DNA of 64,000 nt, from assembly GCA_041686075.1 (NCBI GenBank), contig JAWLEO010000014.1, positions 2,627-66,626 on the forward strand, written 5' to 3'. This stretch comes from Bacteroidales bacterium. Lineage in GTDB: Bacteria > Bacteroidota > Bacteroidia > Bacteroidales > VadinHA17. Of the stretch, positions 9,918 through 26,451 are shown one piece after another. The notes beneath the pieces were generated by a model. That model did not search any database. It was given only the letters and a program-made list of their open reading frames with translations, and was not told the origin of the DNA. The position numbers and the translations under genes were made by a program. How positions within the stretch are numbered: the first letter of the stretch is position 1; every line of letters starts with the position of its first letter.

Positions 9918-9936
9918 TAGTATATAATACTGTATC

Positions 9937-10504: not shown

Positions 10505-10591
10505 GATTGAAGAATTAAGTTTTGAAACCTATTAATAGTACAATATTGCATTTATATTGCATATTTGTACTAATTATGTTATATTTGAGGT

Positions 10592-11764
10592 ATGATAAAG
10601 AGAGAATTGGAAAGCAAACTGCTCGAACTGGCAAAAAAGTTCCCGGTTGTATCAGTTACCGGTCCCAGGCAATCCGGTAAGACAACCCTTTTAAAGGTAT
10701 CTTTCCCTGAATATACTTATACATCCCTTGAAGATCCTGATACCAGGATAATTGCCAGTGAGGATCCACGGTCTTTCCTGGTAATGTCGGATAAAATGAT
10801 AATTGATGAAATACAACGTCTGCCGGAGTTATTCTCTTATATACAGACAATTACAGATCAAACAGGTATTAGCGGTCAGTTTATTATTTCCGGATCGCAA
10901 AGTTTCCTGCTGAATAAGGACATTGCCCAGTCGCTTGCAGGCAGGGTTGCTGTCCTGCGACTGCTCCCTTTTAGTTATATTGAGTTAAGGGGAGCGGATA
11001 TTAACTTTAGCTCATATGAAACACTCATCCATAAAGGATTCTATCCCAGGATATATGATAAAGAAATAGATCCTGCTGATTTCTTCCCAAGTTATATCCA
11101 GACATATATTGAAAGAGATGTGAGGTTACTTCAGAACATCAGGGACCTGAACCTGTTTGTCAGGTTTATGAAATTATGTGCAGGGCGTACAGGTCAGCTG
11201 CTTAATATGAACTCACTTGCTAATGATACCGGTGTAAGTGTTAATACTGTTAAATCATGGATATCGGTTCTGGAAGCAAGTTTTGTTATTTTCTTATTAA
11301 GTCCGCACCACAAAAATTTCAATAAGCGCCTGGTAAAAATGCCAAAACTATATTTTTTTGATACAGGCCTTGCGTGCTCATTGCTTGGCATTGAGACAGC
11401 GTCCCAGTTGAAGACGCACTATCTTACAGGAGGCTTATTTGAGAACTTTGTGATTTCAGAACTTATAAAGAGTCGCTACCACAGGGGCTTACGAAATAAT
11501 TGTTATTTCTGGAGAGATCATAAAGGTAATGAAGTAGATTGTCTGATTGAGAAAGCCCAGATATTAATCCCGGTTGAGATAAAGTCGGCAAGAACTTACA
11601 CGAAGAAGTTATTTAAAGGCCTTATTTACTGGAAGAAAATATCAGGAAATGAAAAGAAAGAAAAATTTCTTATTTATGGTGGAGACAATGACAGGCTTTT
11701 AGAGGATTATAGAATCATCTCTTGGAAGAATATCAATAATTTAATTAATATGGTCAACAGGTAG
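10592..11764 (+). CDS. AAA_14 ATPase with DUF4143
   Basis: TGPRQSGKTT, IIDEIQ, SGSQ, KLYFFDTGL, FWRD..EVD...PVEIK. Confidence 0.9.
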   Translation: MIKRELESKLLELAKKFPVVSVTGPRQSGKTTLLKVSFPEYTYTSLEDPDTRIIASEDPRSFLVMSDKMIIDEIQRLPELFSYIQTITDQTGISGQFIISGSQSFLLNKDIAQSLAGRVAVLRLLPFSYIELRGADINFSSYETLIHKGFYPRIYDKEIDPADFFPSYIQTYIERDVRLLQNIRDLNLFVRFMKLCAGRTGQLLNMNSLANDTGVSVNTVKSWISVLEASFVIFLLSPHHKNFNKRLVKMPKLYFFDTGLACSLLGIETASQLKTHYLTGGLFENFVISELIKSRYHRGLRNNCYFWRDHKGNEVDCLIEKAQILIPVEIKSARTYTKKLFKGLIYWKKISGNEKKEKFLIYGGDNDRLLEDYRIISWKNINNLINMVNR

Positions 11765-11860
11765 TTGGTGAACACCCTCTGCTCCTTCACTTATGCTGCG
11801 CGACGTAGTGATTAAGGGTGAGGTAAATACTTGTATCCCCGGGACTTCGTCGCGGAACGA

Positions 11861-11889
11861 AAAAAGCCGATGAAAATCATCGACTTTTT
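11861..11889. terminator. Bidirectional hairpin between convergent genes
   Basis: AAAAAGCCGATGA-AAA-TCATCGACTTTTT. Confidence 0.55.
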
Positions 11890-11969
11890 ATGTAACCGGA
11901 GCGGTTACACAACACGGAAAAAAATGGAAAATATAGCAGTTGTAAACCCTAATCTTTTGTCTGTAATGC

Positions 11970-12512
11970 TTATTTTTCAGCAAGCAGTATTTCAATGACT
12001 TTTTTACAGAAAGCATCAAGGTCAGACGGGTTTCGCGAAGTGATTAGTTGATTATCCACAACCACCTCTGAATCAACCCATTTAGCCCCTGCATTCTGAA
12101 GGTCTGTTTTAATAGAATGGAAAGAGGTCATTGTCCGGCCCTTTATCACACCTGCTTCAATTAGCAGTTGTGGTCCGTGGCAAATGGCAGCCACAGGCTT
12201 ATTATTATCAAAAAAGCTTTTGACAAAATATACCGCTGATGGTATTCTCCTGAGTTTATCAGGGTTGATCACGCCTCCGGGAAGGACCAGTGCATCGTAA
12301 TCATTTTCTTTTGCATCATCAACAGTCAGGTCAACTTCGATCTCGTTACTCCAGTCACCATGGTTCCAGCCTTTGATCTTTCCCTTCTGTGGTGCTATTA
12401 TACTGACCTCAGCGCCATTTTCTTCAAATACTATTTTAGGCTTGAACAGTTCAGATTCTTCAAAGCCGTCAGTGGCAAGTATGGCTATTCTTTTTCCTTT
12501 TATGTCTTTCAT
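11970..12512 (-). CDS. pfpI: PfpI/DJ-1 family (type 1 glutamine amidotransferase-like) protein
   Basis: Likely start MKDIKGKRIAILATDGFEESE; LPGG, nucleophile AICHGP, TSRNPSD. Confidence 0.9.
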   Translation of the reverse strand: MKDIKGKRIAILATDGFEESELFKPKIVFEENGAEVSIIAPQKGKIKGWNHGDWSNEIEVDLTVDDAKENDYDALVLPGGVINPDKLRRIPSAVYFVKSFFDNNKPVAAICHGPQLLIEAGVIKGRTMTSFHSIKTDLQNAGAKWVDSEVVVDNQLITSRNPSDLDAFCKKVIEILLAEK

Positions 12513-12976
12513 GATTTTCCAGTTTTTTAATTTATGAATTATTTTTTGGATACTGCTTTTGCACATTTATAATTTCCTTCGGGTGAAATCCGAAGAAAAT
12601 CTGTTGGCAGAGCTTTCAATAGATAAGCTGCAGTACCGGCTTAAAACTATAAAAAAACCGTGCCAGATAATTACAAAATAATGATCTGTTTCTGTCCATC
12701 ATGCTTAGATGCGTGTGCTAAGTACAGTAAATCATAGGCTATAATCAATTATCAGTATTAGCTCAATGGTTTCTAACTGGTGGCCCGGCATGAAATAATC
12801 ATTATTAATGAGTGATATTTTTCTCATTACCGGGTAAATATTCCACAGATATTACATATTCCTGCTTTATCCTGAAGATGGACAGGCACTGAACTGTCGG
12901 CACTTCGTCCCGAATCACTCGTGACTTAGCTTGAACCGCTACATAATGAAAAAGCCTCATTAATTATGAGGCCCCT

Positions 12977-13004
12977 GGTACCAGCAACGGACGAAAGTTG
13001 CAAC
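12977..13004. repeat. 28-bp att-like site S2
   Basis: GGTACCAGCAACGGACGAAAGTTGCAAC, preceded by hairpin GCCTCAT/ATGAGGC; same layout as 19007 and 21755. Confidence 0.7.
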
Positions 13005-13483
13005 AGGATCATGGTACACTGTACAGTCCCTGCTGAAATAGCTTCCTAATTTAAACACACACAAACAATAAGGAAGGAATGCTCAATGCCACCTAATATA
13101 AGGACAGGTGGCTTTTTATTTGATATTAATAAGTGGCAGGTTGATTCTCAATTGAGCTTCTCCGGGACCATGTGCCTGTCTGGCAGACGCTTGGTACTAC
13201 ATTTTCTTCAAATTAACCGTCATATGAAACATTATTATAATAAAATGAAACAATTTGCTTCAATTTCATTCATGCAGGAAACATAATCTGAATAATAGTC
13301 TACATACCTGCTATTTACCGCATTAGTCTTTGTTATAAATTGAATATTGATCGTTCATGAGCTCATTATTGAATGATCAATGGTTAAGAACCGGGTTTCA
13401 GGCCTCCAGGCTATTAACAGTATGCAGTATGTGATTTGAAAATATATAACATCTTAACATTAACTAACTACAAACAAAAAATT

Positions 13484-13915
13484 ATGAAAACAGTAAAATT
13501 TTTATCAGCCCTGTTTGTTATTGCCTTATTGACATTCAATCTGGCAATTGGTCAGCCCAAAAACTATACGATTACTGAAGAACCCTATTATGGCTGGGCT
13601 TACGATGGTAGTGAAATGGTCTCAGGAATTCAAATAACTGAAACTAAATGGAATAAAAATAAAGTTCAGGTTAAAGTTACCTGGCACCTGGTGGGAGAGA
13701 CTTCAGGAGCTAATTATGAAGCTGGTTTTATAGAAAATAATATTATCCATGATTTAAATAATGGGGTTTATAATCAAACCTATACATTTCATTTTTTTGG
13801 GAAAAAAGACAATGTGCCAATGGGTTATGGACAGGCCACAGGCCATGTAACGATCAATCCAGATGGAATAACTAAAGTAGATTTCTACGATATCCGTTGG
13901 ATCAATTTTTACTAG
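13484..13915 (+). CDS. Secreted hypothetical protein
   Basis: Start MKTVKFLSALFVIALL.. signal peptide; beta-rich mature part. Confidence 0.7.
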   Translation: MKTVKFLSALFVIALLTFNLAIGQPKNYTITEEPYYGWAYDGSEMVSGIQITETKWNKNKVQVKVTWHLVGETSGANYEAGFIENNIIHDLNNGVYNQTYTFHFFGKKDNVPMGYGQATGHVTINPDGITKVDFYDIRWINFY

Positions 13916-14006
13916 ATTCATAAGTAGAGGTGTAGTTTTGTCCCCAATAGATTAAAATATTTAAATAAATACCAACCAAACCTAACATTAACATAAATAC
14001 AGACCT

Positions 14007-14921
14007 ATGAAAAAGAACAAGTTAAGTATTGGACTAATCTTACTCTCTGTTGCAATAGTGTGTACTTATTGTACCAAGGAAGAGAGTTCCCTGGTCCCAG
14101 AGGGAGAGCTTTTAATGTTAAAGAAAGCTAAAACTTCGAACTACATACCGGGGACTGATATTACTGAACAGCTAAGAAGTGACCTGGAAAGTGGCCTGAG
14201 TGTAACCCTTCCTGCCGGTCATTTTTATCTGAGTGAAGGTGTCTGGACAGATGGATACACCGGTGGGACAGTTAAAGGTTCTGGCAGGGATCTAACAATT
14301 ATTGAGACAGCAGAGGGATTCCTTCCACCAGATGATCCTTATTTAAATGGAAGAGTTAGCGCAGGTATATTGACATTTCAGAATCCAGTAGGAGATATAA
14401 CAATTAAGGCTATGTCCTTCCTTGTCCAGGGTGAGCATCCTGCCGTAGGCCACATATATCCATTTGGAGGATATTATTCAACAAATATTGAAAATGTAAT
14501 TCTCGTTGCAGGTACCGGCGCATCTCTTGAATGCAAAGATCTATTTATTAAGGGTGAATATGTGGGTGATATAGAAGGTGCTTATCTTGGTTATAATATA
14601 TCATTTCCAATTGTCGGGACAGGATTCATGTGTTCAGGACCCTTCAATAAAATAAGTGTGAAGGATTGTGAGATTGATGGGTGCGGGGGCTCTGCGATGG
14701 GCATATGGACAGGTCGAACAGCAGAATTCAAGGATAACAAAATTACAAATGCCGGTATGGGTCTCTGGCTGATAGATGCCATTGAGGCTATTACAATTAA
14801 AGATTGCCATTTTGAGAATACTTCTCTGGTTATTCTTCAGCAAAATATCGCTGATGATTGTTTGTACTGCTTCAAAGATAACACCCTGGATGGTCAGGCC
14901 ATGGAAGATGATTGTCAATAA
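14007..14921 (+). CDS. Putative lipoprotein with right-handed parallel beta-helix
   Basis: Signal peptide with Cys (CTYCTKEE); VTLPAGHFYL...VKGSGRDLTII is a pectate-lyase-3-like start; C-terminal DNKI/DCHF repeats. Confidence 0.65.
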   Translation: MKKNKLSIGLILLSVAIVCTYCTKEESSLVPEGELLMLKKAKTSNYIPGTDITEQLRSDLESGLSVTLPAGHFYLSEGVWTDGYTGGTVKGSGRDLTIIETAEGFLPPDDPYLNGRVSAGILTFQNPVGDITIKAMSFLVQGEHPAVGHIYPFGGYYSTNIENVILVAGTGASLECKDLFIKGEYVGDIEGAYLGYNISFPIVGTGFMCSGPFNKISVKDCEIDGCGGSAMGIWTGRTAEFKDNKITNAGMGLWLIDAIEAITIKDCHFENTSLVILQQNIADDCLYCFKDNTLDGQAMEDDCQ

Positions 14922-15262
14922 CCCGGACTCCCTGACATAGTGTTCTGAGTTATTATTTTAGGTACCAGTATCAATTCTAGTTCAGGGGTGTACTGAAAGC
15001 CATATTTAATTCCTCCCGGGGAAATATATCTTTTGATACACCCCCCTTTCTGAACCCAGCCTTCTGCTTTAAAAAAGCTGCTGCTGTTAATTCAGCCTGG
15101 TCATTAAACCAGATGGCCCGGGCAATATTTCAATATTTCAAAAAGCTTCATCCTCATAAATATTGTCTGCCGCTTGACTTGAGAAGAATAAAAGCCTAAA
15201 TTTAGGTACAGAACGTGTAATGCACCAGGAAGACACCTTCATGGTATTCTGTTTATAGGCTT

Positions 15263-17314
15263 ATGACCCCGGGAGAATCACATAAGGCAGAAGAACTTTC
15301 CAGGGATGAAATATTCCTTAACAAAATAAGGGATTATGTTATCAGAAATATTTCAAGTGAAGCATTCAGCCTTGAAGCACTTGTACTTGAATTAGGTTAC
15401 AGCAGGTCGCAGGTTCACAAGAAATTAAAAAAAATAACAGGTAAATCTCTTTCTGCTTTTGTGCGGGAAATAAGGCTTGAAGAAGCCTTAAAATTATTAA
15501 GGGCAAAGGCTGGCACAGCATCAGAGATAGCATACCGTACAGGCTTCAGCAGCCCTGCATATTTCAGCCAGTGCTTTAATAATTACTTTGGTTTTACACC
15601 GGGGGAAGCAGTTAAAAAGGAAGTACAAAAACCAGATTCACTGAAGCCCGGTAGTAAGCATGGGTCATTCTCAAAACCCATTAAATGGAAGTTAAGGCTA
15701 GCTATTGTCATTCTGGCTGTCCTGTTGATTGCAGTAATTATTCTTGCGTATCCAAAAATATTCAATCGTGCCAAATCCGGACAACTAGGGGCAGAGGGAA
15801 AAACCACAGTTGCCGTGATGCCTTTCCAGAATATGACAAATGATACAACGAAAAATTATTGTGAAAAAGGAATCCAGATACTTATGGCAAACAGTCTTTC
15901 AAATAATAATGGAATACTGGTCAGACAGTCAGATATAATAAATGGAATGCTTGAAGGAAGGGGGATTACGGACTATGCATCATTAACACCTTCCATCGCC
16001 AGTTTAATTTCCAGGAAGCTGGATGCGGATATTTTTATTACCGGGAACATAATGCCTAAAGGAACAAGTTTAAGGATCACTGCTCAATTGATGAACTCCA
16101 GAACGAAGGAGATCATTAAACCCTTTCAGATAGAAGGTCCCAGGGCGGAAGAAAATATAATTATAATGACAGACTCGCTTTCAGAAATGGTTAATAATTA
16201 TCTTGTTATATCTGTTTTGGAAAAGGAATTGAATGAATTGGATGCATATCTGAAATTCTCATCTACCAGTTCTCGAGAAGCATTAAGAAAATATATTCTG
16301 GGTGTTAACGCACATTACAGAGGGGATGAACTCATTGCAAGAGATTGCTACCTGGACGCATTAAAAATCGATTCAAATTTTTTTGCTGCAAGCTGGGGGC
16401 TTGTTTGGGTATATAACAATCTTAGGATATATGACCAGGCTAAAAAAACATGTCTTAAATTATATGCCATAAGAAATGAGGTAAACAGATACCAGGAGGA
16501 CCAAATAAATTGGGCATATGCCTGGTTTTTTGAAACACCCCGGGAAGTAATTAATGCAGTCAGACAACTTCATGAAATTGATAACCAGGTTCCAGAATCT
16601 TATCGTATCCATGGTAATTCTTACGAAAGGTTGCATGAATATGAAAAAGCAATCCCTGAGTATGAAAAAGCACTGGATATCTATAAAAAATGGGATTTAA
16701 AACCAGAGAGGATTTTCTATTATACAGACCTTGGTCGTGCCTATCATAAAACAGGACAGTACAGGAAAGAAAGAAAGCTTTACAGAAAAGCAGTAAAGGA
16801 TTTTCCTGATGATTATCTTTTGCCTTATTATCAAGCTATTCTCGAATTATCTGAAGGTAAAACAAAAGCTGCAAATGAATACATTGAGAAGTATATATCT
16901 GTCAATAAAGAAAGGTCTTTATCTGAGGCAGATATTGCTATAAATTTGGGACGTATTTATTGGAACGCAGAATTATTTGATAAAGCAGAAGACTACTTGC
17001 GCGAGGCTTTAAGATTAAGACCTGAATCTCCCGCGACGATGAATGTTATTGCATTCTTCCTGATTGATACTGAAAGGAACATAACAGAAGGCCTGGAAAT
17101 CATTGATAAAGCACTTGAACTTAGTCCTGATCATTATGAATATCTTGATACAAAAGGCTGGGGTTTATATAAACAGGGTAAATACCAGGAAGCTCTTGAT
17201 ATTTTGCAAAAGAGCTGGGATTTAAGGATGGAAAATGCAGTATATTGGCATGGAGGGTTTCTTCATCTCGAAGCAGCAAAAAAAGCTGTAGCCGTCGGGA
17301 ACACCGAATATTAA
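15263..17314 (+). CDS. AraC-HTH + TM + TolB-N + TPR one-component sensor-regulator (paralog 2)
   Basis: N-terminal SRSQVHKKLK...IRLEEA...SEIAYRTGFSSPAYFSQCF (AraC), one TM helix, TVAVMPFQNMT, TPRs. Confidence 0.88.
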   Translation: MTPGESHKAEELSRDEIFLNKIRDYVIRNISSEAFSLEALVLELGYSRSQVHKKLKKITGKSLSAFVREIRLEEALKLLRAKAGTASEIAYRTGFSSPAYFSQCFNNYFGFTPGEAVKKEVQKPDSLKPGSKHGSFSKPIKWKLRLAIVILAVLLIAVIILAYPKIFNRAKSGQLGAEGKTTVAVMPFQNMTNDTTKNYCEKGIQILMANSLSNNNGILVRQSDIINGMLEGRGITDYASLTPSIASLISRKLDADIFITGNIMPKGTSLRITAQLMNSRTKEIIKPFQIEGPRAEENIIIMTDSLSEMVNNYLVISVLEKELNELDAYLKFSSTSSREALRKYILGVNAHYRGDELIARDCYLDALKIDSNFFAASWGLVWVYNNLRIYDQAKKTCLKLYAIRNEVNRYQEDQINWAYAWFFETPREVINAVRQLHEIDNQVPESYRIHGNSYERLHEYEKAIPEYEKALDIYKKWDLKPERIFYYTDLGRAYHKTGQYRKERKLYRKAVKDFPDDYLLPYYQAILELSEGKTKAANEYIEKYISVNKERSLSEADIAINLGRIYWNAELFDKAEDYLREALRLRPESPATMNVIAFFLIDTERNITEGLEIIDKALELSPDHYEYLDTKGWGLYKQGKYQEALDILQKSWDLRMENAVYWHGGFLHLEAAKKAVAVGNTEY

Positions 17315-17320
17315 CAGCTC
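16846..17320 (+). repeat. Near-identical block shared with 20556-21030
   Basis: Colinear at offset 3710; about 21 mismatches in 475 nt by eye; 16921-17098 identical to 20631-20808. Confidence 0.92.
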
Positions 17321-17332
17321 GTTTCCTGTCAT

Positions 17333-17433
17333 CAATTCAATTCGTGAATCGTGAGTTTGACATCAATAATTGTTTTGCATCCCCGTTGCAAAAGGAAGTG
17401 TACTTTAAAAAAGGGATGACACCCCCGGTTTTT
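17333..17433. repeat. ~100-bp non-coding repeat, copy A (copy B at 25203-25302)
   Basis: ATTCGT.AATCGTGAGTTTG.CAT.AATAATTGTT.TGCATCCC.GTTGCAAAAGGAAGTGTAC.TTAAAAA shared. Confidence 0.85.
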
Positions 17434-18555
17434 TCAGAATAGTCTTAGATAATTTTCGAAAACGTATAATTTTTTTCTTTTCCCACCGGTAATTTCTTTC
17501 AGGATTCCCAACACTTCAAGGTCATTAATTAACCTGTATGCTGTTGGGGGGGATAAATTAGTGATTTCAACGACAATTGAAGCATCAATTATTGGCTTTT
17601 GATACAGGTAATCCATAATTTTCAGAGCAGGTACTGACCGGCCTTTCAACTCTTGTATTTCACCTTCCACATCGCTCTTTAATTTAAGAATCTTATCAAA
17701 AGTTTTAATCCCTTTTTTTGCTGTTTCTATAACTCCTACCAAAAAGAATTTGAACCATTGATTTATATCATTTTTCTCTCTTACAATCATAAGATTATCA
17801 TAGTAAAGAGATCTATTTCGCTCAAAGAAATCGGATAAATACAATATTGGTCTTTTAAATATTTCTTTTTCGACCAGGTATAAGGTAATTAATAAACGAC
17901 CAACTCTTCCATTCCCATCTAAGAAGGGATGTATAGTTTCAAATTGATAATGAATAAGAGCAATTTTAAGTAAATCAGGAAAAAAGAATTCATTATTATG
18001 AACGAATTTCTCCAGATCATTCATTAATTCCTGTACTGAAGTATGAACCGGTGGGATAAAAACTGCATCATTTATAGAGGCTCCTCCTATCCAATTTTGA
18101 CTATTCCTGAAAACTCCCGGTTGCTTGTGCTTCCCCCTGACTCCCTTAAGCAATGTTGCATGAATGTTCCTGATTAATCGGGAAGAAAAGGGTAGCTCGT
18201 TTAAGGATTCAATTGCCGTATTTAAGGCATTTATATAGTTTTGAACCTCTTCCCAATCATCCCTTTTTTCAATTGATATATCTTTTTTATCTAATAAAGC
18301 ATCTTGAATACTGGTCTGGGTACCTTCTATTTTATTTGATTTTGTTGCTTCCTTAAGGACATGCATACTAATAAACAGGTCAACATTGGGAATATATTCA
18401 GAATACATGTCTAATCTTCCCAGCTGTCTATCCGCCTGGCTTAAAAGATTAAGTAGCTCCATGTCTTCGATAAGCCAGGGTTTATTAATTAATTCTGGTT
18501 GAAAGCTTTTATACGTTCCCTGATTAATATAAGTACCTGCCTTAAAATTTTTCAT
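17434..18555 (-). CDS. Fic family protein (class II) with C-terminal wHTH
   Basis: Catalytic HPFLDGNGRVGR; N-terminal inhibitory motif SNKIEG. Confidence 0.92.
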   Translation of the reverse strand: MKNFKAGTYINQGTYKSFQPELINKPWLIEDMELLNLLSQADRQLGRLDMYSEYIPNVDLFISMHVLKEATKSNKIEGTQTSIQDALLDKKDISIEKRDDWEEVQNYINALNTAIESLNELPFSSRLIRNIHATLLKGVRGKHKQPGVFRNSQNWIGGASINDAVFIPPVHTSVQELMNDLEKFVHNNEFFFPDLLKIALIHYQFETIHPFLDGNGRVGRLLITLYLVEKEIFKRPILYLSDFFERNRSLYYDNLMIVREKNDINQWFKFFLVGVIETAKKGIKTFDKILKLKSDVEGEIQELKGRSVPALKIMDYLYQKPIIDASIVVEITNLSPPTAYRLINDLEVLGILKEITGGKRKKLYVFENYLRLF

Positions 18556-18855
18556 AATATTTCTTAATTATCCAATTCTTTAGTTAAAGATAGGTAAATA
18601 TTTTTAAATAAGCACATGCTTTAATTAAAATATGCGCCAAAAATTAAAATAAGAGAAGGCCAAATGTAAGGCAAATGTTTAAATTAAGTAGAAAAACGGA
18701 CATACTGTAAAAGCTAGTGCCCTGACTACAATTCGCCGGATAAAATTGACCAGATGAAACTTGGGCTCATTCCCAGATATATTAATGAATGCTGAAATCT
18801 TATGATTAACGGTTCAATATTTTCGACATTTTCAGCTTTAGCAGTCAATCCCTGT

Positions 18856-18913
18856 TTGCAACTTTGAGAAAAAAACCGAATTTCAAAATTCAAAAGTTGC
18901 AAGCCTGAACTTA
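18856..18913. repeat. End site R1 with an internal inverted copy
   Basis: TTGCAACTTTGA...AAATTCAAAAGTTGCAAGCCTGAACTTA; similar to 25361-25387. Confidence 0.6.
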
Positions 18914-19006
18914 TGACAATCGGTTCTTCTTATTCCCTCAACTGGTAGGGGTTTCAGAAGGTCGTAAAAAGAAACAAGAGGTCGAAAATGACCTCTTGTG
19001 CCTCTG

Positions 19007-19034
19007 GGTGCCTGGAGCGGACGGAAGTTGCAAC
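19007..19034. repeat. 28-bp att-like site S3
   Basis: GGTGCCTGGAGCGGACGGAAGTTGCAAC after hairpin ACAAGAGGTC/GACCTCTTGT; GTGCCTGGAGCGG matches the tRNA-Leu 3' end GTACCCGGAGCGG at 11/13. Confidence 0.75.
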
Positions 19035-19104
19035 CAGCCAGGTGATCATTTATTTGACTTTGATAACAAGTTAGTTTAATTTTATATATCCAAACCAAAC
19101 AATT

Positions 19105-21024
19105 ATGCCTGAAAAACCAGATAATCCAAATAACTTCTGGCAGGAACTGAAACGCAGGAAAGTTGTTCGTGTCGTTATCGGTTATGCCGCTGCATCATAT
19201 GTACTCCTTGAATTAACATCAATAATAGCCGAACCACTGGGATTACCTGCCTGGACAATAAACCTTGTCCTGGTACTGTTATGCATTGGTTTTGTCATTA
19301 CAGTTGTAGTATCCTGGATATATGACTTTACTCCAAAAGGTATCGAGAAGACAAAACCAGCAAAGGTTGGCGGGGAGCAAGAAACAAGTACCAAACCACT
19401 AAAAAGGAAACTTAAAGTAAGCGATATTATCATCTCAGTTTTGTTGGTTGCAGTAATAGTATTGGTTTACCCCAAAATATTTAAAAAGGATAAACTGGAA
19501 CACCTGAGGTCAGGAGAGGAGATGACGATTGCCGTAATGCCGTTTCAGAATATGACCAGTGATACCACATGGAATATCTGGGAAGATGGTATTAAAGATG
19601 AATTAATAACACAGCTGACAAACTCAGAAGAACTGAAAGTCAGACAAACAGAATCCATAAATACTTTGATTGAAAGCAAGGAGCTAACTAACTATGCCTC
19701 AATCACACCTTCCATTGCCAATGAAATCTCAAGGGACCTGGATGCGGATGTGTTTATCAATGGTAGTATAAAAAAGGCCGGTAATAAAATCCGTGTAAAT
19801 GCTCAGATATTCGATTCAAAAACAAAAGAGTCATTAAAGTCTTTTACAATAGATGAACAATATAATGAAGACCTCATCCTTAATATCACAGACTCGCTTT
19901 CAGAAATGGTTAATAATTATCTTGTTATATCTGTTTTGGAAAAGGAAACGACTCGTTACAGTCGGTATTCATCATCAACCAGTTCGCCTGAAGCATACAG
20001 AAAATTTATCTTGGCACGTAATGCAGGAGGAAAAGCGGATTGGTCTACTGCAAAAGAGTACTTGTTAGACGCGCTAAAAATCGATTCAAATTTTACTGCT
20101 GCAACTATAGCACTTCTATGGAAATATAACAATAATGGGGAATATGACCAGGCAAAGAAAATATGTCTTAAATTATATGCCAAAAGAAATCAGATGACCA
20201 CATATGATAAGGCTAACATAAATTTTATATATGCCTGGCTTTTTGAAACACCCCTGGAAATGAGAATGGCAGTTAGACAACGTCTTGAAATTGATGACCA
20301 GGATCCAGTATTATATAAACTCCTTGGTCAAACTTATTTACGTTTGGATGAATATGAAAAAGCAATCCCTGAGTTTGAAAAAGGGCTTGATATATATAAA
20401 AAATGGGATTCAAAACCGGATTGGCTCACTTATTTTTTCCTTGGTCAAGCTTACCATCGTACAGGACAGCACAGGAAAGCAAGAAAGCTTTACAGAAAAG
20501 CAGGAAAGGATTTTCCTGATAATAGTTATTTGCTGCGTTGGCATACTATTGTCGCATTATCTGAAGGTAAAACAAAAGCTGCAAATGAATACATTGAGAA
20601 GTATATATCTGTCTGTAAAGAAAGGTCTGCATCTGAGGCAGATATTGCTATAAATTTGGGACGTATTTATTGGAACGCAGAATTATTTGATAAAGCAGAA
20701 GACTACTTGCGCGAGGCTTTAAGATTAAGACCTGAATCTCCCGCGACGATGAATGTTATTGCATTCTTCCTGATTGATACTGAAAGGAACATAACAGAAG
20801 GCCTGGAACTCGTTAAAAAAGCACTTGAACTTAGTCCTGATCATTATGAATATCTTGATACAAAAGGCTGGGGTTTATATAAACAGGGTAAATACCAGGA
20901 AGCTCTTGATATTCTGCAAAAAAGCTGGGATTTAAGGATGAAAAATACAGTATATGTTCATAGAGAGTTTCTTCATCTCGAAGCAGCAAAAAAAGCTGTA
21001 GCCGAAGGGAGCAACGAATATTAA
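19105..21024 (+). CDS. Membrane-anchored TolB-N + TPR protein (paralog 3)
   Basis: NFWQELKRRKVVRV lead as in paralog 1, IAVMPFQNMT, TPRs; C-terminus nearly identical to paralog 2. Confidence 0.87.
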   Translation: MPEKPDNPNNFWQELKRRKVVRVVIGYAAASYVLLELTSIIAEPLGLPAWTINLVLVLLCIGFVITVVVSWIYDFTPKGIEKTKPAKVGGEQETSTKPLKRKLKVSDIIISVLLVAVIVLVYPKIFKKDKLEHLRSGEEMTIAVMPFQNMTSDTTWNIWEDGIKDELITQLTNSEELKVRQTESINTLIESKELTNYASITPSIANEISRDLDADVFINGSIKKAGNKIRVNAQIFDSKTKESLKSFTIDEQYNEDLILNITDSLSEMVNNYLVISVLEKETTRYSRYSSSTSSPEAYRKFILARNAGGKADWSTAKEYLLDALKIDSNFTAATIALLWKYNNNGEYDQAKKICLKLYAKRNQMTTYDKANINFIYAWLFETPLEMRMAVRQRLEIDDQDPVLYKLLGQTYLRLDEYEKAIPEFEKGLDIYKKWDSKPDWLTYFFLGQAYHRTGQHRKARKLYRKAGKDFPDNSYLLRWHTIVALSEGKTKAANEYIEKYISVCKERSASEADIAINLGRIYWNAELFDKAEDYLREALRLRPESPATMNVIAFFLIDTERNITEGLELVKKALELSPDHYEYLDTKGWGLYKQGKYQEALDILQKSWDLRMKNTVYVHREFLHLEAAKKAVAEGSNEY

Positions 21025-21119
21025 CAGCTCATTCTGGAAAAAGGAAAATTGTATACCTGTCTTCACTGAGCAGTCAAGCTTATCTTCAGGATTAGTGGTG
21101 AGTTGGGAAGCACTAAAAA

Positions 21120-21754
21120 ATGCCCCGGACAGCGTCCGACGTAGCCCCGAAAATTCGGAGGCGGAGGGGCATAATAATAATAGCCACAGTTAAACCTGTG
21201 GGTAAAAAGCCACACCCCCCCCTCCATCGTCGCGCGGTGGAGGGGAGGGGTAAATGCCTGTATCCCCAGGACTTCGTCCGGGGCTATTGTTGGGGCTGTA
21301 TCATAAGTCCCAAAACCACCCCGTCCTCGGCCTGACGGCCGGGACACCCCTCCTTTAAAAAGGAGGGGAAATTATTGATATTCAAAGTCATACATTCCTC
21401 CTTTTCTGAAGAGGAGAAGTACCCCTGACCGAACAAAGTGAGTGTCAGGGGGGGAAGTGGTGTACTTATGATACAGCCCCATATGATTTTTTATTGTATC
21501 CAGGGGAATGGACCCGGGCTATTATTATTTTCCCCCTACCGGAATTGAGCATAGAGCAGGGGGCAGGGAGTGAGAGGGTTTCCGAAGACGCGGAACAAAC
21601 AGTGTGAGTGTCAGAGCGAGAGTGAGAACCGAACCACGCTTTCGCGTGGTGAGCTCGACGAACGAAGTGAGTCAAAAACATCACGAGAGTGCTCGCTCTC
21701 GCTTTGTCAGCCGAAGCTTTTGCGAAGGCTGGCTCTCACTCTCGCTCTGTTTTC
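21120..21754. repeat. Nested REP/MITE-like palindrome cluster
   Basis: Many GC hairpins (CCCCTCC..GGAGGGG, TATCCCCAGGACTTCGTC, GGCTATTATTATT units, CAGAGCGAGAGTGAG/CTCACTCTCGCTCTG). Confidence 0.7.
21291..21481. mobile_element. MITE-like element with 18-bp perfect terminal inverted repeats
   Basis: TGGGGCTGTATCATAAGT (21291-21308) / ACTTATGATACAGCCCCA (21464-21481); no ORF inside. Confidence 0.65.
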
Positions 21755-21782
21755 GGTACCCCCAATGGGCGGAAGTTGCAAC
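21755..21782. repeat. 28-bp att-like site S4
   Basis: GGTACCCCCAATGGGCGGAAGTTGCAAC, preceded by CTCTCACTCTCGCTCTGTTT as in the tRNA-Leu trailer. Confidence 0.75.
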
Positions 21783-22367
21783 CAATTTTGCAGGTTAATA
21801 GACAGGATACAACAGTTTATGTCTCATAAGAACCCCTATAGTCTAAAACTGGTAATAAACAACTAAATTCAAAAAAGCGAATGGTTAACTTAGCAAACAA
21901 TACCTTTGGTACGGGAAATGGGGAGTATTATAAACAGAGATAAAACAGGAGTTAGTAATCTGTGGTTTAGCTGACCCATTGTTCAGGTCAGTTGAAGCTA
22001 TAATGAAGTTCTTTGGTGGGTATTATATCTATAGTATTGATTGGAAAATGCAAGAGTACCTTAGAGGTGAGTATTATGCAATTCGAAAGCGCAATAAAGT
22101 AGGTATATCAGTATATGCGTATCATATATTGGATTGGGAGTTTATAGCTACGTATTTTAATCGGAAGGATGGCGATGAAATAAAATAAGTTTATTCCAAT
22201 AGTCTGTATATCAGATCAAAGATGTAAAAATAAATTTGACTTGCATTATTATATTTCGTAAATTCGATATACTGTTTGGACTCTTCCTTCTTGATCATTT
22301 GGTTATGATTAGGTGCAACTAATGAACTTTTTTATTACTTTTTATGATTGAATAAGCATACGAAAAA

Positions 22368-22802
22368 ATGAAAGACATATTAAATATGGTAGCCATTTGC
22401 GGAATAGTTTTTATTATAGCTTTTGGCTGTGAGAAAGAAGATAATGATCCTGAATGTTATGGTTCTGTATGCTTAGAAGGAGAACTAATCATGGTTAATT
22501 ATTGTTGGTTCCCAGACGACGTATATAGCGTATTAATTCAAATTCTTAATCCTGATATAAATATAGGTGATACTCTCACTTCTGATCCAACCTATGATAA
22601 TGTTATTGAATGTTATAATTTACCACCTAAATATATAGATCATTTAGATGATACATTATACTTCACATACAGAGATATATCAGGAGAAGATACTGTAAGT
22701 CGGGCTTGTGATGCGTTCTCTCCTAGAATCCATGTTAATAAAGGAATATTTATACTTTGTATATCCACAAAGGGATGTGAATATTTAAAGAGAATAGATT
22801 AG
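22368..22802 (+). CDS. Cys-rich putative lipoprotein
   Basis: Lipobox-like IAFGC-EKED; AT-rich gene. Confidence 0.7.
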   Translation: MKDILNMVAICGIVFIIAFGCEKEDNDPECYGSVCLEGELIMVNYCWFPDDVYSVLIQILNPDINIGDTLTSDPTYDNVIECYNLPPKYIDHLDDTLYFTYRDISGEDTVSRACDAFSPRIHVNKGIFILCISTKGCEYLKRID

Positions 22803-22821
22803 TTTAATACATTTCAGTGTT

Positions 22822-25067
22822 ATGACTATTATTAAAATCCTTACTATGAAAAAGAAGTGGATTATACTCTCTATTATTGTTTTATTAATAATTCTAGGCC
22901 TTAATAATAATAATACAACAAAATTTTATTATGCTTACAATAAACGAATTGAACTGATTCCTTTAAAACATAAAATTATTGTTAAGTATAAAGAAATTAA
23001 AGATTCATCTTATCTTGCTTCATTCATAAATACAAATGTTTTCCCAGATGAATTTTTAATTAATCCGATTGATTATCAATCTTATTACATTACCTTAAAA
23101 CCAGAAGCTAGGATCGTTGACTTTATTAATATATTTAGAGAAAGCGATGAGATACTTTCAATAAATCCTGTTTACGTTACGAGAAGTGGAAATCAAAAAG
23201 GCGTAATTGATGAAATATTAGTATTGTTTCATAAAAATATCTCGGAGAAGCAAAAATATGAATTGCATTCTAAATTTGGAGTAGGAGTCAAGAAATCTCT
23301 GAAGTCATTAGATTTTTTAATTGTGCCACCGAAAGAGGATGCTATCGAAATAGCTAATCAATATCAAGAAAGTGGCATGGTGGAATTTGCACATCCTAAT
23401 TTTATCTCAGAAATTGAATTCTTTCAAGATATTCCAAATGATGAGTATTTTAATTGGCAGTTTCCACTTCATAATACAGGTGATACCACCTTTGATGGTC
23501 GTACATGTACTGCTGATGCTGATGTTGATGCTCCAGAAGCATGGGAAGTTACCAAAGGAAACCAAAATATTGTTATCGCCGTGATTGACCATGGATTAAC
23601 CAGTAATCATCCTGATTTACCCAATGCACGACAATTAAGATTGAATGGAAGTAATTTTGGAGAAGGAGACCCAGATGATCCTTCGCCAACAGGAGATTTT
23701 GCACATGGTAATGCATGTGCAGGAACAATTGCAGCAACTCAGGATAACAACAAAGGTGTTACCGGAATTGCTCCAAACTGCAAGATAATGCCAATAAGAG
23801 TTGATGCTACGACAACAGATGGGGAAAAGGCTGAAGCAATTGAGTTTGCTTATGAAAATGGAGCTGATATTATTTCTTGTAGCTGGGGTGATGAAGGTGA
23901 AACTGATCCAGATCATATACCGGCAATTGTTACGGCAATAGAAAATGCAACAACGGAAGGTCGTGATGGATTAGGTTCAATTGTAGTTTTCGCTGCAAGC
24001 AATACAGCCTGGCATGCTGGAAATGATCCTGGGCATATCACGTTTCCTGCATGTGTTGATATACCAGGAGTAATAACAGTAGGAGCTTCTGATCGAAATG
24101 ATGATCAAGCTGACTATAGTCCGACAAGTGATCCCGAAAGTAATGACAACCAGTTAGTAGATGTTGTTGCACCATCTCATCGTGCTTATCCAAGGGAAGT
24201 AAGTTATTGTCGTGGGATACAAGGCGAAACCTGGGAAATCTGGACAATTGATATTCCTGGAACAGATGGTTACAATCCATGGCCAAGAAATGCTGGCTGT
24301 CTTAATCCACCTCCTTATCAAGAAGAATGCCCTGCATCTGGAACACATCCCTTATACTATACCGGCCGATTTGGTGGCACATCACATTCTTGCCCTTTAA
24401 CGGCTGGAATAGCTGCATTAATACTTTCATTAAATTCAAATTATTTACAACTACAAGTTTATAATATTATTGCCTGCACTGCAGATGAAGTAGGAGGCAT
24501 TACTTATACAAATGGATGGAGTGAAGAATTTGGCTTTGGGAGAGTTAACGCATATCAAGCTGTATCTTTAGCACAAGAACTTACAAATATGTATATTACT
24601 GGGGAATCTCTTGTTTGTTCTTCCGTTTCAAAAACTTTTATTTTACATAATCGCCCATCTCAAACAACAGTTAATTGGGAACATAGTAATAATTTAGTGG
24701 AGGTAAGTGGTCAGGGTACTAATAATTATTGTGTTAAAGCAACTGCTTATGCCTCTAGTCCCGGTTGGGTTGAAGCAACAATAAAAGGTGATAATGGTGG
24801 AGAATTAATATTTACCCAAATCCTACAACTGAAAAGGCTACAATAACTATTGTCTCAAATGAAGACATGAATACTTTCACTAATAATGTTGATGAAGAAT
24901 GGCAGCTTGAGGTTTATACACAGGGACAATTACTTAGGCTAAGTATCCCGGCAATTATTGATAATAAATATGTACTAAATACATCAGGCTGGAAACCTGG
25001 AATGTATTTCATCAGGGTTTACTATAAAGATGAGGTGCTTTGGGGTACACTTATTGTTAATAAATAA
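22822..25067 (+). pseudogene. S8 subtilisin-like protease with T9SS type-A CTD, split by a frameshift at about 24811
   Basis: IAVIDHG (Asp), HGNACAG (His), FGGTSHSCP (Ser); main ORF stops at 24846; the -1 frame reads IYPNPTTEKATITI...GWKPGMYFIRV...LIVNK to 25067. Confidence 0.8.
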
Positions 25068-25202
25068 TTTATAACCCCAGGTTCTAATCGGTAAATAGGT
25101 GTTCGGATTGCTTGCTTTAAGTTGCATAACAGGACCCATACTATAAGGTATGCAACTGAAAACGCAACCCTCACTTGAGGATTATTGCTCGCCTGCTGCA
25201 GC

Positions 25203-25302
25203 CAATTTTATTCGTCAATCGTGAGTTTGCCATTAATAATTGTTCTGCATCCCTGTTGCAAAAGGAAGTGTACGTTAAAAAGAGAAGACATTCCCGGTTT
25301 TT
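25203..25302. repeat. ~100-bp non-coding repeat, copy B
   Basis: Aligns to 17333-17433 at offset 7870. Confidence 0.85.
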
Positions 25303-25360
25303 GTATTAGCCCCCTAAATAGTCGGACAATAAATACAAAAAAATTTAGGAGAAGACATAA

Positions 25361-25387
25361 AATTTCAAAGTTGCAACCCTGGGCTTA
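25361..25387. repeat. End site R2
   Basis: AATTTCAAAGTTGCAACCCTGGGCTTA; shares AAGTTGCAACC with S4. Confidence 0.6.
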
Positions 25388-25388
25388 G

Positions 25389-25739
25389 TTAATAATTCTC
25401 TAATTTCTTTATCAGGGAAAAAAGCATCTTTGAAATTTCCTCAAGACTCTTTAAGTAGTCATTATATTCTTCTTCCTTTATTGCAGCAGTTTCATACAGA
25501 TAATCAAAAATTGCGGCACACTCAAAAGTACTGCCACGTGAAATAACCATGAAATTCTTCCGATCCTTTTTACTGAATCTTGAGCATCCCTCAGCAATAT
25601 TCAGCATTATACTAAAAGAAGCCCTGCGTAGCTGGTCGTTTGTTGTTCTGTCAAAGTTCCTGGCAGCAATTAACTTTTGCATCAGTATGCAAAAAGACTT
25701 GGCCTTCTGGTAAACATCCAGTTTCTGAAAATCAAACAT
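25389..25739 (-). CDS. Four-helix bundle protein (23S rRNA IVP / bAvd-like family)
   Basis: Likely start MFDFQKLDVYQKA; DQLRRASFSIMLNIAEG, F..ISRGS..EC. Confidence 0.88.
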   Translation of the reverse strand: MFDFQKLDVYQKAKSFCILMQKLIAARNFDRTTNDQLRRASFSIMLNIAEGCSRFSKKDRKNFMVISRGSTFECAAIFDYLYETAAIKEEEYNDYLKSLEEISKMLFSLIKKLENY

Positions 25740-25942
25740 AATTTTAAATTTTGCGAGACAATAGCTAAGATAGGAAAAAAGTGTGAATCTGAGTGTGAGT
25801 GTGGGCCCTCCTTCGCTACCGCCTTCGGTAAACCTACGGCGGTCAGAGAAAGCTACGGAGGACGAAGTGTGAGAGTGAGGAAACATTTCGAGAGTGATAG
25901 TTCGAGCTTCTCGCTCTCACTCTCACTCTCGCTCTGTTTCAG

Positions 25943-26027
25943 TACCCGGAGCGGGACTTGAACCCGCACAGCCTAAACGGCCATTGGATTTTAAGTCCAA
26001 CGTGTCTACCAATTCCACCATCCGGGC
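25943..26027 (-). tRNA. tRNA-Leu (TAA)
   Basis: Reverse complement GCCCGGATGGTGGAATTGGTAGACACGTTGGACTTAAAATCCAATGGCCGTTTAGGCTGTGCGGGTTCAAGTCCCGCTCCGGGTA; long variable arm. Confidence 0.96.
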
Positions 26028-26451
26028 TGGTACCAAACTGGTAATATATTATTTTCAATATACTTTATCAAAGTATTCTACAAAGAACTCATTAACTCCG
26101 GATGGTGGAATTGTCTCCCCACTACCTGGCCCCTCCCTAAAATAACCCACAGGGTTATTTCTTTACGGTCGGTCCTACCATCCGGGCGCTTAAAAGTTAC
26201 CATCCAGGCTAGTGCTTTCAGCGGGGCAAAATTACGAAAAAAAATGGAATGATGGATTGATGGAATATTGCTGTCTCCTTAATTCGTGTTAATTCGTTAA
26301 AATTTGTGATAATTGACTCAGGCTTTGCCTTCGTCGAGCTCGCAGCACTCGCATCCCGAATACTCTGGATACTCGCACTACTCGGTTCGTGATCCCCGGA
26401 ATTGCCTCGGCCAAAGGCCTCGGCGGATCCTGGCCTGCCGGCGGCTTGCTT

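Follow-up and report, generated by a model that had tools for sequence, protein, structure and literature searches.

Tandem cassettes without a recombinase gene of their own, marked by short tRNA-end-like sites, behind tRNA-Leu(UAA) in a Bacteroidales genome

Our subject is a row of gene modules that lies behind a tRNA-Leu(UAA) gene in a Bacteroidales genome (Bacteroidota; lineage VadinHA17) and is punctuated by short, conserved sites resembling the end of this tRNA. It is located in a stretch of 64,000 nucleotides (GenBank assembly GCA_041686075.1, contig JAWLEO010000014.1, positions 2,627 to 66,626), hereafter called the window. In our labels, G stands for genomes (G000 being the window's own, with 3,516,775 bases on 90 contigs), C for contigs, L for fetched loci, and X1, X4, and X6 for public runs; the window corresponds to C14:2627-66626 of G000. 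A preliminary description had taken the row for a tandem array of cassettes without an integrase, marked by hybrid sites derived from tRNA-Leu. Here, we report the anatomy of the sites and modules, their borders, their presence or absence between relatives, their recurrence across the family, and the finding that the arrays contain no recombinase genes, and we discuss how the array may have arisen. The features are listed in Table 1.

Table 1. Sites, tRNA genes, and gene modules of the window (window positions; site sequences are written in tRNA orientation)
Feature	Position	Strand	Remarks
Site S2	12977-13004	+	pattern match; GTTGCAAC-TTTCGTCCGTTGCTGGTACC; closes module B
Site S3	19007-19034	+	pattern match; GTTGCAAC-TTCCGT-CCGCTCCAGGCACC
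Site S4	21755-21782	+	pattern match; GTTGCAAC-TTCCGCCCATTGGGGGTACC; closes module D
Site S1, oldest, degenerate junction	11866-11947	+	tRNA-type right half, degenerate left half, ancestral tRNA-Leu terminator of the genus
S1 right half, GTAACCGGAGCGG	11892-11904		12 of 13 positions identical to tRNA end; behind hairpin 11868-11882
S1 degenerate left half, GTTGTAAAC	11939-11947		read from the sequence
tRNA-Leu(UAA), anticodon taa	25942-26027	-	ARAGORN; Rfam RF00005, 61.7 bits; 3' end ...GTCCCGCTCCGGGTAC
Extra AAGTTGCAAC box	25368-25377	+	just past the IVP stop codon; no tRNA-like half
GAGAG-rich leader, forming the proximal end of module D (newest cassette)	25741-25941	-	directly abuts the tRNA 3' end
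IVP gene (23S rRNA intervening-sequence protein family), first in module D	25389-25740	-	PF05635, E = 9e-26, ORF 25389-25886
Module D cargo: putative lipoprotein of 144 amino acids, S8 subtilase	22368-24846	+	PF00082, PF22148
GAGAG-type displaced trailer behind S4	21570-21754	-	without IVP gene; followed by GC-rich repeats 21030-21570
Module C cargo: TPR protein	19105-21024	+	Pfam TPR families
Cassette B proximal module	18854-18999	-	terminator 18974-18999; GTTGCAAC-like boxes at 18854-18862 and 18896-18903
Module B cargo: protein of 159 amino acids, beta-helix protein, AraC-TPR regulator (+); Fic (-)	13436-18555	+ and -	Pfam
Module A: hairpin, trailer, pfpI gene	11970-12972	-	terminator hairpin 12954-12972; trailer with homology to the one behind tRNA-Leu in G009; pfpI gene 11970-12566
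Older variable segment past S1	8168-11865	+	AAA_14/DUF4143 ATPase, MazF, second ATPase (Pfam)
tRNA-Phe	3002-3075	-	ARAGORN/Rfam
tRNA-Gly	26576-26649	-	ARAGORN/Rfam

Sites S2, S3, and S4 have the same spacing and are matched by one pattern, GGTRCC-N5-YGGRC-GRAAG-TTGCAAC, which occurred by chance in none of 100 dinucleotide-preserving shuffles of the window, and the three 28-bp sites of the preliminary description are thereby confirmed. They are the sole matches in the whole assembly even at up to three mismatches, and a genome-wide repeat was rejected as an explanation because all three copies lie at this locus. The box AAGTTGCAAC occurs six times in the genome, four of them at this locus. Since tRNA-Leu is on the minus strand, sites and tRNA share one orientation. 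Read in the direction of the tRNA, a site consists of GTTGCAAC-TTYCG and a mimic of the tRNA 3' end, followed by a displaced tRNA trailer. The tRNA-end-like stretch is CCGTTGCTGGTACC in S2, CCGCTCCAGGCACC in S3, and CCATTGGGGGTACC in S4, compared to CCGCTCCGGGTAC in the tRNA itself. As had been claimed, each site follows a hairpin or a trailer copy on the plus strand; in the direction of the tRNA, the trailer after S2 is a hairpin with a T-run (12972-12954 in the direction of the minus strand), the one after S3 is an intrinsic terminator with a T-run (18999-18974), and the one after S4 is a GAGAG-rich leader that, by alignment, resembles the leader now standing behind tRNA-Leu. Displaced trailers are hence of two types, an intrinsic terminator or the GAGAG-rich leader of a gene for a four-helix-bundle protein (IVP). 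The partial fourth site noticed at 11892 (12 of 13 positions) is indeed present behind a hairpin, and a degenerate left half at 11939-11947 can be added to it; we refer to this junction as S1.

The tRNA-Leu itself is intact according to ARAGORN and Rfam, which matches an insertion at its 3' end that spares the tRNA. This end plays the role of the docking point of the array, similar to attB or attI. Genes adjoining tRNA-Leu encode tRNA-Gly, an amino-acid permease, and MutS. The grouping of the cargo proposed earlier (pfpI; a secreted pair with an AraC-TPR regulator and Fic; TPR; lipoprotein and S8 protease) agrees with Pfam, and we add the IVP gene, whose start at about 25740 was read from the sequence and the orthologue in G025. 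Whether the segment 8168-11865, past S1, is part of the array is uncertain.

Modules A to D are bounded by sites at both ends and contain neither recombinase nor transfer genes according to a Pfam scan of the open reading frames (ORFs) of positions 8262-31748. For the rest of the window, the search for recombinases was confined to the two domains that follow. The tyrosine recombinase domain PF00589 has no match on C14 and nine matches elsewhere in G000, and the serine recombinase domain PF00239 has no match anywhere in G000. The earlier statement that no recombinase is encoded in cis, so that the elements were mobilized in trans or have lost it, also holds family-wide. In 10 of 10 array-bearing genomes (G348, G357, G355, G242, G214, G230, G227, G171, G248, and G258), PF00589 matches were confined to regions outside the arrays, and the nearest ones on the array contig were about 100 kb (G242), 448 kb (G258), and 507 kb (G248) away; G214 has just two intact tyrosine recombinases, both of Xer size. 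Pfam scans that covered 108 ORFs from arrays and their surroundings (16 + 30 + 29 + 33) revealed one IS110 transposase, in G004, and no site-specific recombinase. Furthermore, phmmer searches with the eight tyrosine recombinases of G000 as queries found no similar protein among 676 ORFs flanking fetched site loci, i.e., 0 of 345 ORFs of at least 130 amino acids from loci L024 to L139 and 0 of 331 ORFs of at least 80 amino acids from 79 metagenome loci (218,582 bases). No integrase-bearing relative sharing the site turned up close to the sites of family genomes, genome_contigs, or metagenome_contigs, where the fetched loci mostly had flanks of 2 kb or less and where metagenome-assembled genomes (MAGs) may miss integrase-bearing elements. 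From this absence in cis, we infer an enzyme acting in trans.

The borders of the modules were examined by blast comparison of window positions 6500-26100 with 15 genomes of the genus and by contigs from four public runs (contigs only), placed on the window at at least 90% likeness. In 14 genomes of the genus, tRNA-Leu is nearly invariant, and divergence starts right after ...TCCGGGTAC(C), i.e., GGGTAC(C). Trailers that stand behind sites in the window stand behind the tRNA in relatives. The S3 terminator, together with about 100 nt past it, is found nearly identical directly behind tRNA-Leu in G012 and G014, and a terminator of the same type follows tRNA-Leu in G004 and G005 as well as in G242 and G171, which belong to two other genera. 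The S2 trailer matches the trailer of tRNA-Leu in G009. The S4 leader matches the tRNA trailers of G000 and G025. It has a further match in G009: about 110 nt past the tRNA, 14 bp of the tRNA end are repeated exactly, and another copy of the GAGAG leader stands behind this repeat. At borders, the tRNA 3' end is matched by S1 (12/13), by S3, whose right half is of the tRNA type (12/14), and by the repeat in G009, whereas most sites carry a differing mimic. The notion of tRNA-derived hybrid sites can be kept only for S1 and S3; for the most part, the sites are a conserved mimic of the tRNA end that comes with the cassettes. Terminators of the type seen in the S1 hairpin (AAAAGTCGATGA..TCATCGGCTTTTT) stand immediately behind tRNA-Leu in G001 and G011, and variants of this type do so in G003 and G015; we regard it as the ancestral tRNA-Leu terminator of the genus. 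It recurs behind the site in G025, G004, and G014, in each of which a single site was found; in the first two, this site is on the tRNA-distal side of the cassette. The arrays lie between tRNA-Leu and the old terminator, as predicted by repeated insertion at the tRNA end.

The comparison also reveals that gene content changes at the sites; this test, posed in the preliminary description, came out in its favor, with breaks in G012, G014, G005, and contigs of X1, X4, and X6. In G012, G014, and G005, the tRNA is joined to the left flank of S3, the blast matches overlapping by 13 bp that correspond to the tRNA end, and therefore, modules C and D are absent there. They are also absent from an X4 contig that passes from 19020 directly into GACTTGAACCCGCACA, the tRNA. 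The Fic gene of G014, 96% identical to that of module B, adjoins the tRNA's terminator, and contig C81 of this genome has a site beyond genes for an aldo-keto reductase, a second Fic, and a pterin dehydratase. In G012, the pfpI module is 90% identical up to window position 13007, three bases past the end of S2 (13004), and beyond it come a diverged site of its own and then unrelated sequence with a different cassette. The same genome is without 8168-11945, and the break at 11946 coincides with GTTGTAAAC, read as the degenerate left half of S1, at whose edge it lies; likewise, an X1 contig joins 8167 to 11946, skipping 8168-11945. In G001, tRNA-Leu is followed after 295 bp by the ATPase gene of window positions 8180-9464, with no site at up to two mismatches. 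One contig each of X4 and X6 joins 21611 to 25851 and thereby links the two trailer copies; since, in addition, the depth of these runs does not reach 1 anywhere in 22322-24925 and is partly 0 (as in the bin 22322-22972), module D with its cargo is absent in X4 and X6. The cargo genes of module D are 92% identical in contig C82 of G001, in another context and with no sites beside them, which indicates that cassettes can hold genes that are ordinary chromosomal genes elsewhere.

The site is not restricted to the window's genome. Using the window-derived pattern with up to two mismatches, it was found in 6 of 61 relatives, G000 included, and, in a survey of the family, in 114 of 349 genomes (72 of the 215 of good quality), distributed over 6 of 20 genera; the reversed pattern, used as a control, had no match in any family genome. 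In many genomes, the sites form arrays of two to eight co-oriented copies on the same contig and strand, 1 to 15 kb apart. G242 has five sites and G214 four; at up to three mismatches, G348 has eight on one contig, G357 has seven on one contig and one elsewhere, and G355 has six. An exact scan with the consensus GTACCCSSARCGGACRRAAGTTGCAAC gave 119 stretches in genome_contigs, nearly all in MAGs labeled Bacteroidales or Rikenellaceae by their submitters and a few in oddly labeled bins, and at least 131 stretches in metagenome_contigs. There was no match to GTACCCSSARCGGACRRAAGTTGCAAC in viral_contigs, and a phage attP was therefore rejected as a candidate. Where a tRNA is in view, the sites stand behind tRNA-Leu(taa), which agrees with the tie to this locus that had been claimed for the motif. 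This tRNA is upstream and co-oriented in G025, G004, G003, G009, G242, and G171; in the latter two, the array begins behind it, and G242 also has tRNA-Gly upstream, as in the window. Among 227 fetched site loci, only three contain a tRNA within their flanks of 2 kb or less, in each case tRNA-Leu(taa), upstream, co-oriented, and 1051 to 1678 nt away. The cargo in the family includes toxin-antitoxin genes (HipA/HipB, MazF, AbiEii with DUF6922, MNT-HepT), Fic, a primase-helicase of a TOTE-type conflict system, an nSTAND NTPase, and an ECF/FecR/SusC/SusD locus with alkaline phosphatase and GH2, as well as esterases, beta-lactamase-fold proteins, peptidases, ABC/MacB transporters, and two-component regulators. 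Cassettes measure 1.2 to 11 kb, and the smallest (1.2 to 1.3 kb) contain a single gene or a toxin-antitoxin pair; a complete cassette of 1.2 kb with one gene lies between two sites in L229, a linear contig. A cassette can also hold a whole polysaccharide-utilization locus, and in module B, the genes are on both strands. With about a third of the related genomes searched having the site, the arrays look like a family-wide way of collecting genes.

The extent of the site was determined from 154 distinct contexts, which were gathered with the pattern, so that the core is biased and the edges are unbiased. Positions within G-GTTGCAACTTTTGTCCGTTCGGGGTAC carry close to 2 bits of information, and the value falls to about 0 on either side; it is high over no more than 28 nt, with sharp edges. 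The full form is G-GTTGCAAC-TTTT-GTCC-GTTCGGGGTAC, 27 to 28 bp long, and its last 16 nt or so imitate the T-stem and acceptor end of the tRNA. In the family consensus, the tRNA-like half reads GTCCGTTCGGGGTAC versus GTCCCGCTCCGGGTAC in the tRNA, with the differences at fixed positions. A tRNA of the genome's own was considered as the source of the mimic and rejected, since none of the 38 tRNAs of G000 ends like the core GTTCGGGGTAC. Because of the fixed differences and the lack of such a tRNA in G000, we regard the core as a conserved mimic. Pairs of contexts that share only the right flank (503) are linked from the first base after GGGTAC onward, and pairs that share only the left flank (14) are linked up to the base before GTTGCAAC. 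A blast-based hint that positions 17 and 20 are linked to the right flank was not confirmed by a stricter, adjacency-based run. To the right of the 154 sites stands a GAGAG-type IVP leader in 70 cases, a terminator in 58, and something else in 26 (in several of these, a hairpin and then the leader). Extra GTTGCAAC boxes are frequent on this side: 54 lie at +100 to +200 behind sites, and 44 of 143 sites have at least one at +40 to +330 (16 have two or more), versus a single site of the 143 with a box within -300 to -10.

Variants of the core have a bearing on how the site may recombine. The cassette-type consensus GTTCGGG is found in 90 of the 154 contexts and GTTGGGG in 29. The variant GTTCCGG (11/154) is a hybrid, with a cassette-type left and a tRNA-type right part, and GCTCCGG (9/154) is fully of the tRNA type, as in S3 and S1. 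The reciprocal of the hybrid, GCTCGGG, would be harmful if it stayed in the tRNA, and only two contexts have it. Judging from these counts, the excess of GTTCCGG over its reciprocal would be expected if exchange with the tRNA occurs within the 16 nt of similarity and those products in which the tRNA is impaired do not persist.

Some other readings of the site were tried and discarded. An RNA gene was rejected because Rfam lists only the three tRNAs of the window, ARAGORN finds none at the sites, and no T-arm fold was seen by eye. Promoters of the sigma-54 type (-24/-12) or the Bacteroidetes type (-33/-7) were rejected as well, since the spacing does not fit the consensus sequences, and the next gene is 70 to 590 nt off. 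Finally, the probable dif site of G000 (contig C68, about position 1517, ATTTGCCTATAA-TTAATA-TTATGTTAAAT), whose right arm equals the XerD arm of Escherichia coli, is unlike the 28-bp site, and therefore, a dif/Xer site was rejected.

How could such an array grow? There is little doubt in our minds that cassettes accreted repeatedly at the 3' end of tRNA-Leu(UAA), and we think it probable, though by no means certain, that they were inserted site specifically, as non-autonomous cassettes, by a recombinase acting in trans. According to this model, cassettes without their own recombinase would insert successively at the very 3' end of the tRNA. In the direction of the tRNA, each consists of its own trailer, then its cargo in either orientation, and then the closing site of 27 to 28 bp. 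The trailer is an intrinsic terminator, often with one or two GTTGCAAC boxes 100 to 200 nt later, or the IVP gene with its GAGAG leader. In a circular form of the cassette, the site would be joined to its own trailer, which would give an attP-like order of box, core, terminator, and boxes. Recombination of the core with the tRNA end may then leave the tRNA intact and provide it with the newcomer's trailer, and the previous trailer, headed by the newcomer's site, would be displaced one step outward. The recombinase may be encoded elsewhere in the genome or on a helper element that is rarely assembled.

Several observations weigh against site-specific insertion in trans, and no recombinase has been tied to the site. 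The tRNA-like half of S4 differs from the present tRNA at 4 of 13 positions and could not have served this tRNA. Polymorphic positions within the site are linked to neither flank, so that they do not locate the crossover; just 14 pairs share the left flank. An inverted pair of half-sites, as tyrosine and serine recombinases usually need, is not visible in the site, and conservation is lacking to the right of GGGTAC; moreover, the sample behind the logo is biased in having been gathered with the pattern. Among the 79 metagenome loci, none has a terminal direct repeat of 20 to 200 nt, as a circular cassette would, and L229, the only small contig with two sites, is linear. A contig of X4 that joins 19009 to 12985 was considered as the junction of a module B circle and was rejected: its site variant matches neither S2 nor S3, and therefore, the joint stems from a relative with another neighbor. 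The form of X4 and X6 in which 21611 is joined to 25851 could be a deletion by homologous recombination between the trailer copies rather than a pre-insertion state, and insertion and deletion are not distinguishable from comparisons alone. Finally, 235 of the 349 family genomes have no match, with the pattern tuned to the window and many of the assemblies fragmented.

This leads to the first of the alternatives, homologous recombination only. Cassettes may have been taken up or received by conjugation and recombined by means of the tRNA region and shared cassettes as anchors, and the 28-nt element and the GTTGCAAC boxes would be kept for another reason, as operators, insulators, or tRNA-like RNA-processing signals. 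Indeed, GTTGCAAC is a perfect palindrome, and the extra boxes are paired about 35 nt apart in the trailers, as operators might be; the variant of X4 and X6 joins two homologous trailer copies, and the polymorphisms that follow neither flank and the lack of obvious inverted half-sites are in line with this explanation, too. However, it does not account for the position of the element, which is confined to cassette junctions behind one tRNA (three of three copies in G000), always in one orientation and with tRNA-Leu(taa) as the only tRNA near a site. Unrelated cargo on either side breaks exactly at the site edges, homologous recombination alone would not pair a mimic of the tRNA end with a displaced tRNA terminator, and Rfam, which finds no RNA family besides the three tRNAs in the window, finds none at the sites. 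We consider this explanation rather unlikely.

To be judged quite unlikely is a second explanation, by which the modules are decayed classical islands, each the remnant of an integrase-bearing tRNA element (NBU-like, integrative and conjugative element [ICE], or prophage) whose integrase was deleted, and the sites are leftover attR sequences that serve no function today. Tycheposon islands have been described as tandem accretions that include degenerate remnants and partial tRNAs (Hackl et al., 10.1101/2020.12.28.424599). S1 and S3 do carry tRNA-type ends beside old tRNA terminators, and helpers may be under-sampled, as MAG binning tends to lose mobile elements. However, neither an integrase nor a fragment of one was found in any of the 10 arrays or the 676 ORFs around fetched site loci. 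Furthermore, the site is kept over its 27 to 28 nt with sharp edges in six genera with unrelated flanks, the conserved mimic (GTTCGGG in 90 of 154) prevails rather than decaying copies, and some cassettes have just 1.2 to 1.3 kb and a single gene or toxin-antitoxin pair.

A third explanation, in which the sites are ends of tRNA-targeting transposons (Tn7-like, IS110 with bridge RNA, or IS91 rolling-circle elements) and the arrays their non-autonomous derivatives, draws on CGGACAAAAGTTGCAAC, which may resemble the TnsB-binding repeats of Tn7 ends, on Tn7-like elements, which reportedly sit in one orientation behind conserved genes and carry defense cargo, on the GTTC of the core, an IS91 target, and on an IS110 transposase beside the distal site of G004. 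It is very improbable, since IS110 was seen near sites in G004 only (1 of 676 flanking ORFs), no IS91-like protein near any site, and no TniQ match in G000 (in a weak search that gave none in control genomes either), the rve matches of G000 have the size and context of IS3 and IS21, and the left edge has no target-site duplications, no multiple terminal repeats, and nothing conserved beyond the 28 nt. The IS110-family transposase of G004 (contig C46, L010:10188-11246) is inserted past the distal site and its terminator, about 130 nt from the latter.

Insertion of non-autonomous cassettes in trans invites comparison with known systems. Cis-mobilizable elements (CIMEs), known in connection with ICESt1 and ICESt3 of Streptococcus thermophilus, can be acted upon by a related integrase-bearing ICE that shares their att site. 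Like CIMEs, the cassettes lack recombination genes, are bounded by att-type sites, have one orientation at a single chromosomal site, and are pushed outward by newcomers; unlike for CIMEs, no integrase-bearing relative was found in the 10 arrays or among the ORFs around fetched site loci, and the site is a mimic of a tRNA end of 27 to 28 bp with GTTGCAAC boxes instead of a long att copy. NBU1 of Bacteroides is a mobilizable transposon of about 10 kb that integrates at the 3' end of tRNA-Leu and encodes IntN1 and mobilization genes. Going by this general description of NBU1, the Bacteroidales host and the target at the tRNA-Leu 3' end are shared, but nothing comparable to IntN1 or the mobilization genes is found in the arrays. 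IMEX/dif modules, i.e., integrative mobile elements exploiting Xer, are recombinase-less, are bounded by 28-bp sites, are moved in trans by the XerC/XerD of the host, and form tandem stacks. Recombinase-less modules bounded by 28 bp and stacked at one site are what we see as well, but the target is a tRNA end and not dif, and the site is unlike the probable dif of G000, identified by the dif consensus.

Tycheposons of Prochlorococcus are cargo elements at tRNA genes that form islands with partial tRNAs; their cargo reflects niche and defense, and many of them carry replication modules (Hackl et al., 10.1101/2020.12.28.424599). Cargo insertion at a tRNA and the building of islands by repeated integration are common to both, whereas the cassettes described here have neither integrase nor replication modules and end in a short, conserved site instead of plain partial tRNAs. 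The arrays also resemble integrons: there is one docking point, cassettes that lack a recombinase line up at it in a growing row of uniform orientation, a short conserved site closes each of them, and the cargo is rich in toxin-antitoxin and defense genes. Unlike in integrons, no intI adjoins the docking point (the IntI-like gene of G000 is on C5), and the cassettes of 1.2 to 11 kb, with genes in both orientations and their own terminators, are not the mostly promoterless, single-gene cassettes of integrons. The attC sites of integrons are imperfect palindromes with RYYYAAC and GTTRRRY ends. In contrast, the site described here is 27 to 28 nt long, conserved in sequence, and without a long palindrome, and the attC-like repeats that the family does possess look different. 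The comparison with integrons made in the preliminary description thus stands for the manner of working, but none of the three integron features that we tested was found.

A more ambitious version of the model, in which the arrays are a tRNA-anchored analogue of integrons, can be put forward only tentatively. Here, the end of tRNA-Leu(UAA) would be the docking point, the 27-bp mimic with its GTTGCAAC boxes the cassette site, and a chromosomal enzyme encoded elsewhere would capture, stack, and release the multi-gene cassettes throughout the family. Each cassette would equip the tRNA with a new terminator or IVP unit. Candidates for this enzyme are the Xer/IntI-like enzyme beside an attC-type array or one of two Xer-like enzymes. 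The tyrosine recombinases resident in G000 are the IntI-like one, Xer-like ones on C18 and C52, a pair on C12, and a trio on C82.

The known part of these findings is tandem accretion at a tRNA gene, as in genomic islands, in CIMEs, and in tycheposon islands. What differs is that no integrase-bearing member was found in the arrays and neighborhoods examined, that the site is a short, sharp mimic with GTTGCAAC boxes, and that each cassette supplies a tRNA trailer. A literature search for the motif and for stacking at tRNA-Leu in Bacteroidetes found nothing on this system, subscription journals being outside its coverage. If the cassettes are moved in trans, the arrays would be an integron-like capture platform made of other parts, namely docking at a tRNA end and a short tRNA-mimic cassette site. 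This platform would store whole operons, including toxin-antitoxin pairs (HipA, MazF, AbiE, MNT-HepT), Fic, a TOTE-type conflict system, an nSTAND NTPase, a SusC/SusD locus, and peptidases, and it would explain how the gene pool of these widespread Bacteroidales of sediment and soil stays flexible although no mobile-element machinery is visible at the locus. Should the cassettes be no more than decayed islands, this would be an ordinary finding. In any case, the 27-bp site is a simple handle for locating cassette borders in metagenomes.

The IntI-like recombinase of G000 (C5:124873-126291) is a lead only as regards the enzyme. It is of a type with 470 to 530 amino acids and scores 216 bits against the NCBIfam model "tyrosine recombinase/integron integrase" (cutoff, 220) and 187 bits against "integron integrase" (cutoff, 265), just below both thresholds, and relatives (E of 1e-50 or less) are found in 82 of 131 family genomes sampled. 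The orthologues in G242 and G248 adjoin 10 to 11 unusually long, attC-like repeats that end in ..CCTAAC and ..GTTAGG, are about 130 to 300 nt long, and are spaced 0.5 to 2.6 kb apart (L179:7520-17926 on G242:C8 and L181:1-11900 on G248:C9). Small cassettes, e.g., a DUF433/PIN-like pair, lie in these arrays, and the orthologues are almost always near a contig end. Since the IntI-like gene adjoins attC-like repeat arrays, the family carries a separate, integron-like locus. The assembly of G000 lacks the attC end motifs seen in G242 and G248, and no GTTGCAAC box occurs in the regions beside the IntI-like gene in G242 and G248. Sites were found in 13 of 27 genomes with a strong IntI-like orthologue versus 10 of 75 other listed genomes, as counted by eye with 29 matchless genomes left out; this co-occurrence is not counted as evidence because it follows genus membership and assembly quality.

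Some further observations concern the content of the modules. The IVP unit, with its GAGAG-rich, partly palindromic leader, begins 1 to 2 nt past the 3' end of tRNA-Leu (also in L009:7832-8315), and the GAGAG leader motif is confined to this locus in G000; the unit looks like an intervening-sequence (IVS)-type unit residing in the tRNA trailer. The TPR genes at 6058-7988, 15263-17314, and 19105-21024 are paralogues in separate modules with 65 to 75% DNA identity, and further copies are scattered across G000 and related genomes; this expanding TPR family travels with the cassettes. In the 3.8-kb segment past S1 (8262-11764), two AAA_14/DUF4143 ATPase paralogues flank the MazF gene, and ATPases of this type also lie beside the arrays of G001 and G214. 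In G003 (L011, C259, 8011-11418), tRNA-Leu and an array of one cassette (AbiEii with DUF6922) are inverted relative to tRNA-Gly, and the two tRNAs are separated by genes for MazF and an outer-membrane beta-barrel protein. Clusters of GC-rich palindromic repeats are found in AT-rich spacers at 21030-21570, 26100-26570, about 9510-9610, and 25130-25210. Contigs of X1 join 25205 back to 9512 and skip 47 to 50 nt at 9557-9605, and therefore, both the 9512 and the 25205 regions contain copies of a short repeat.

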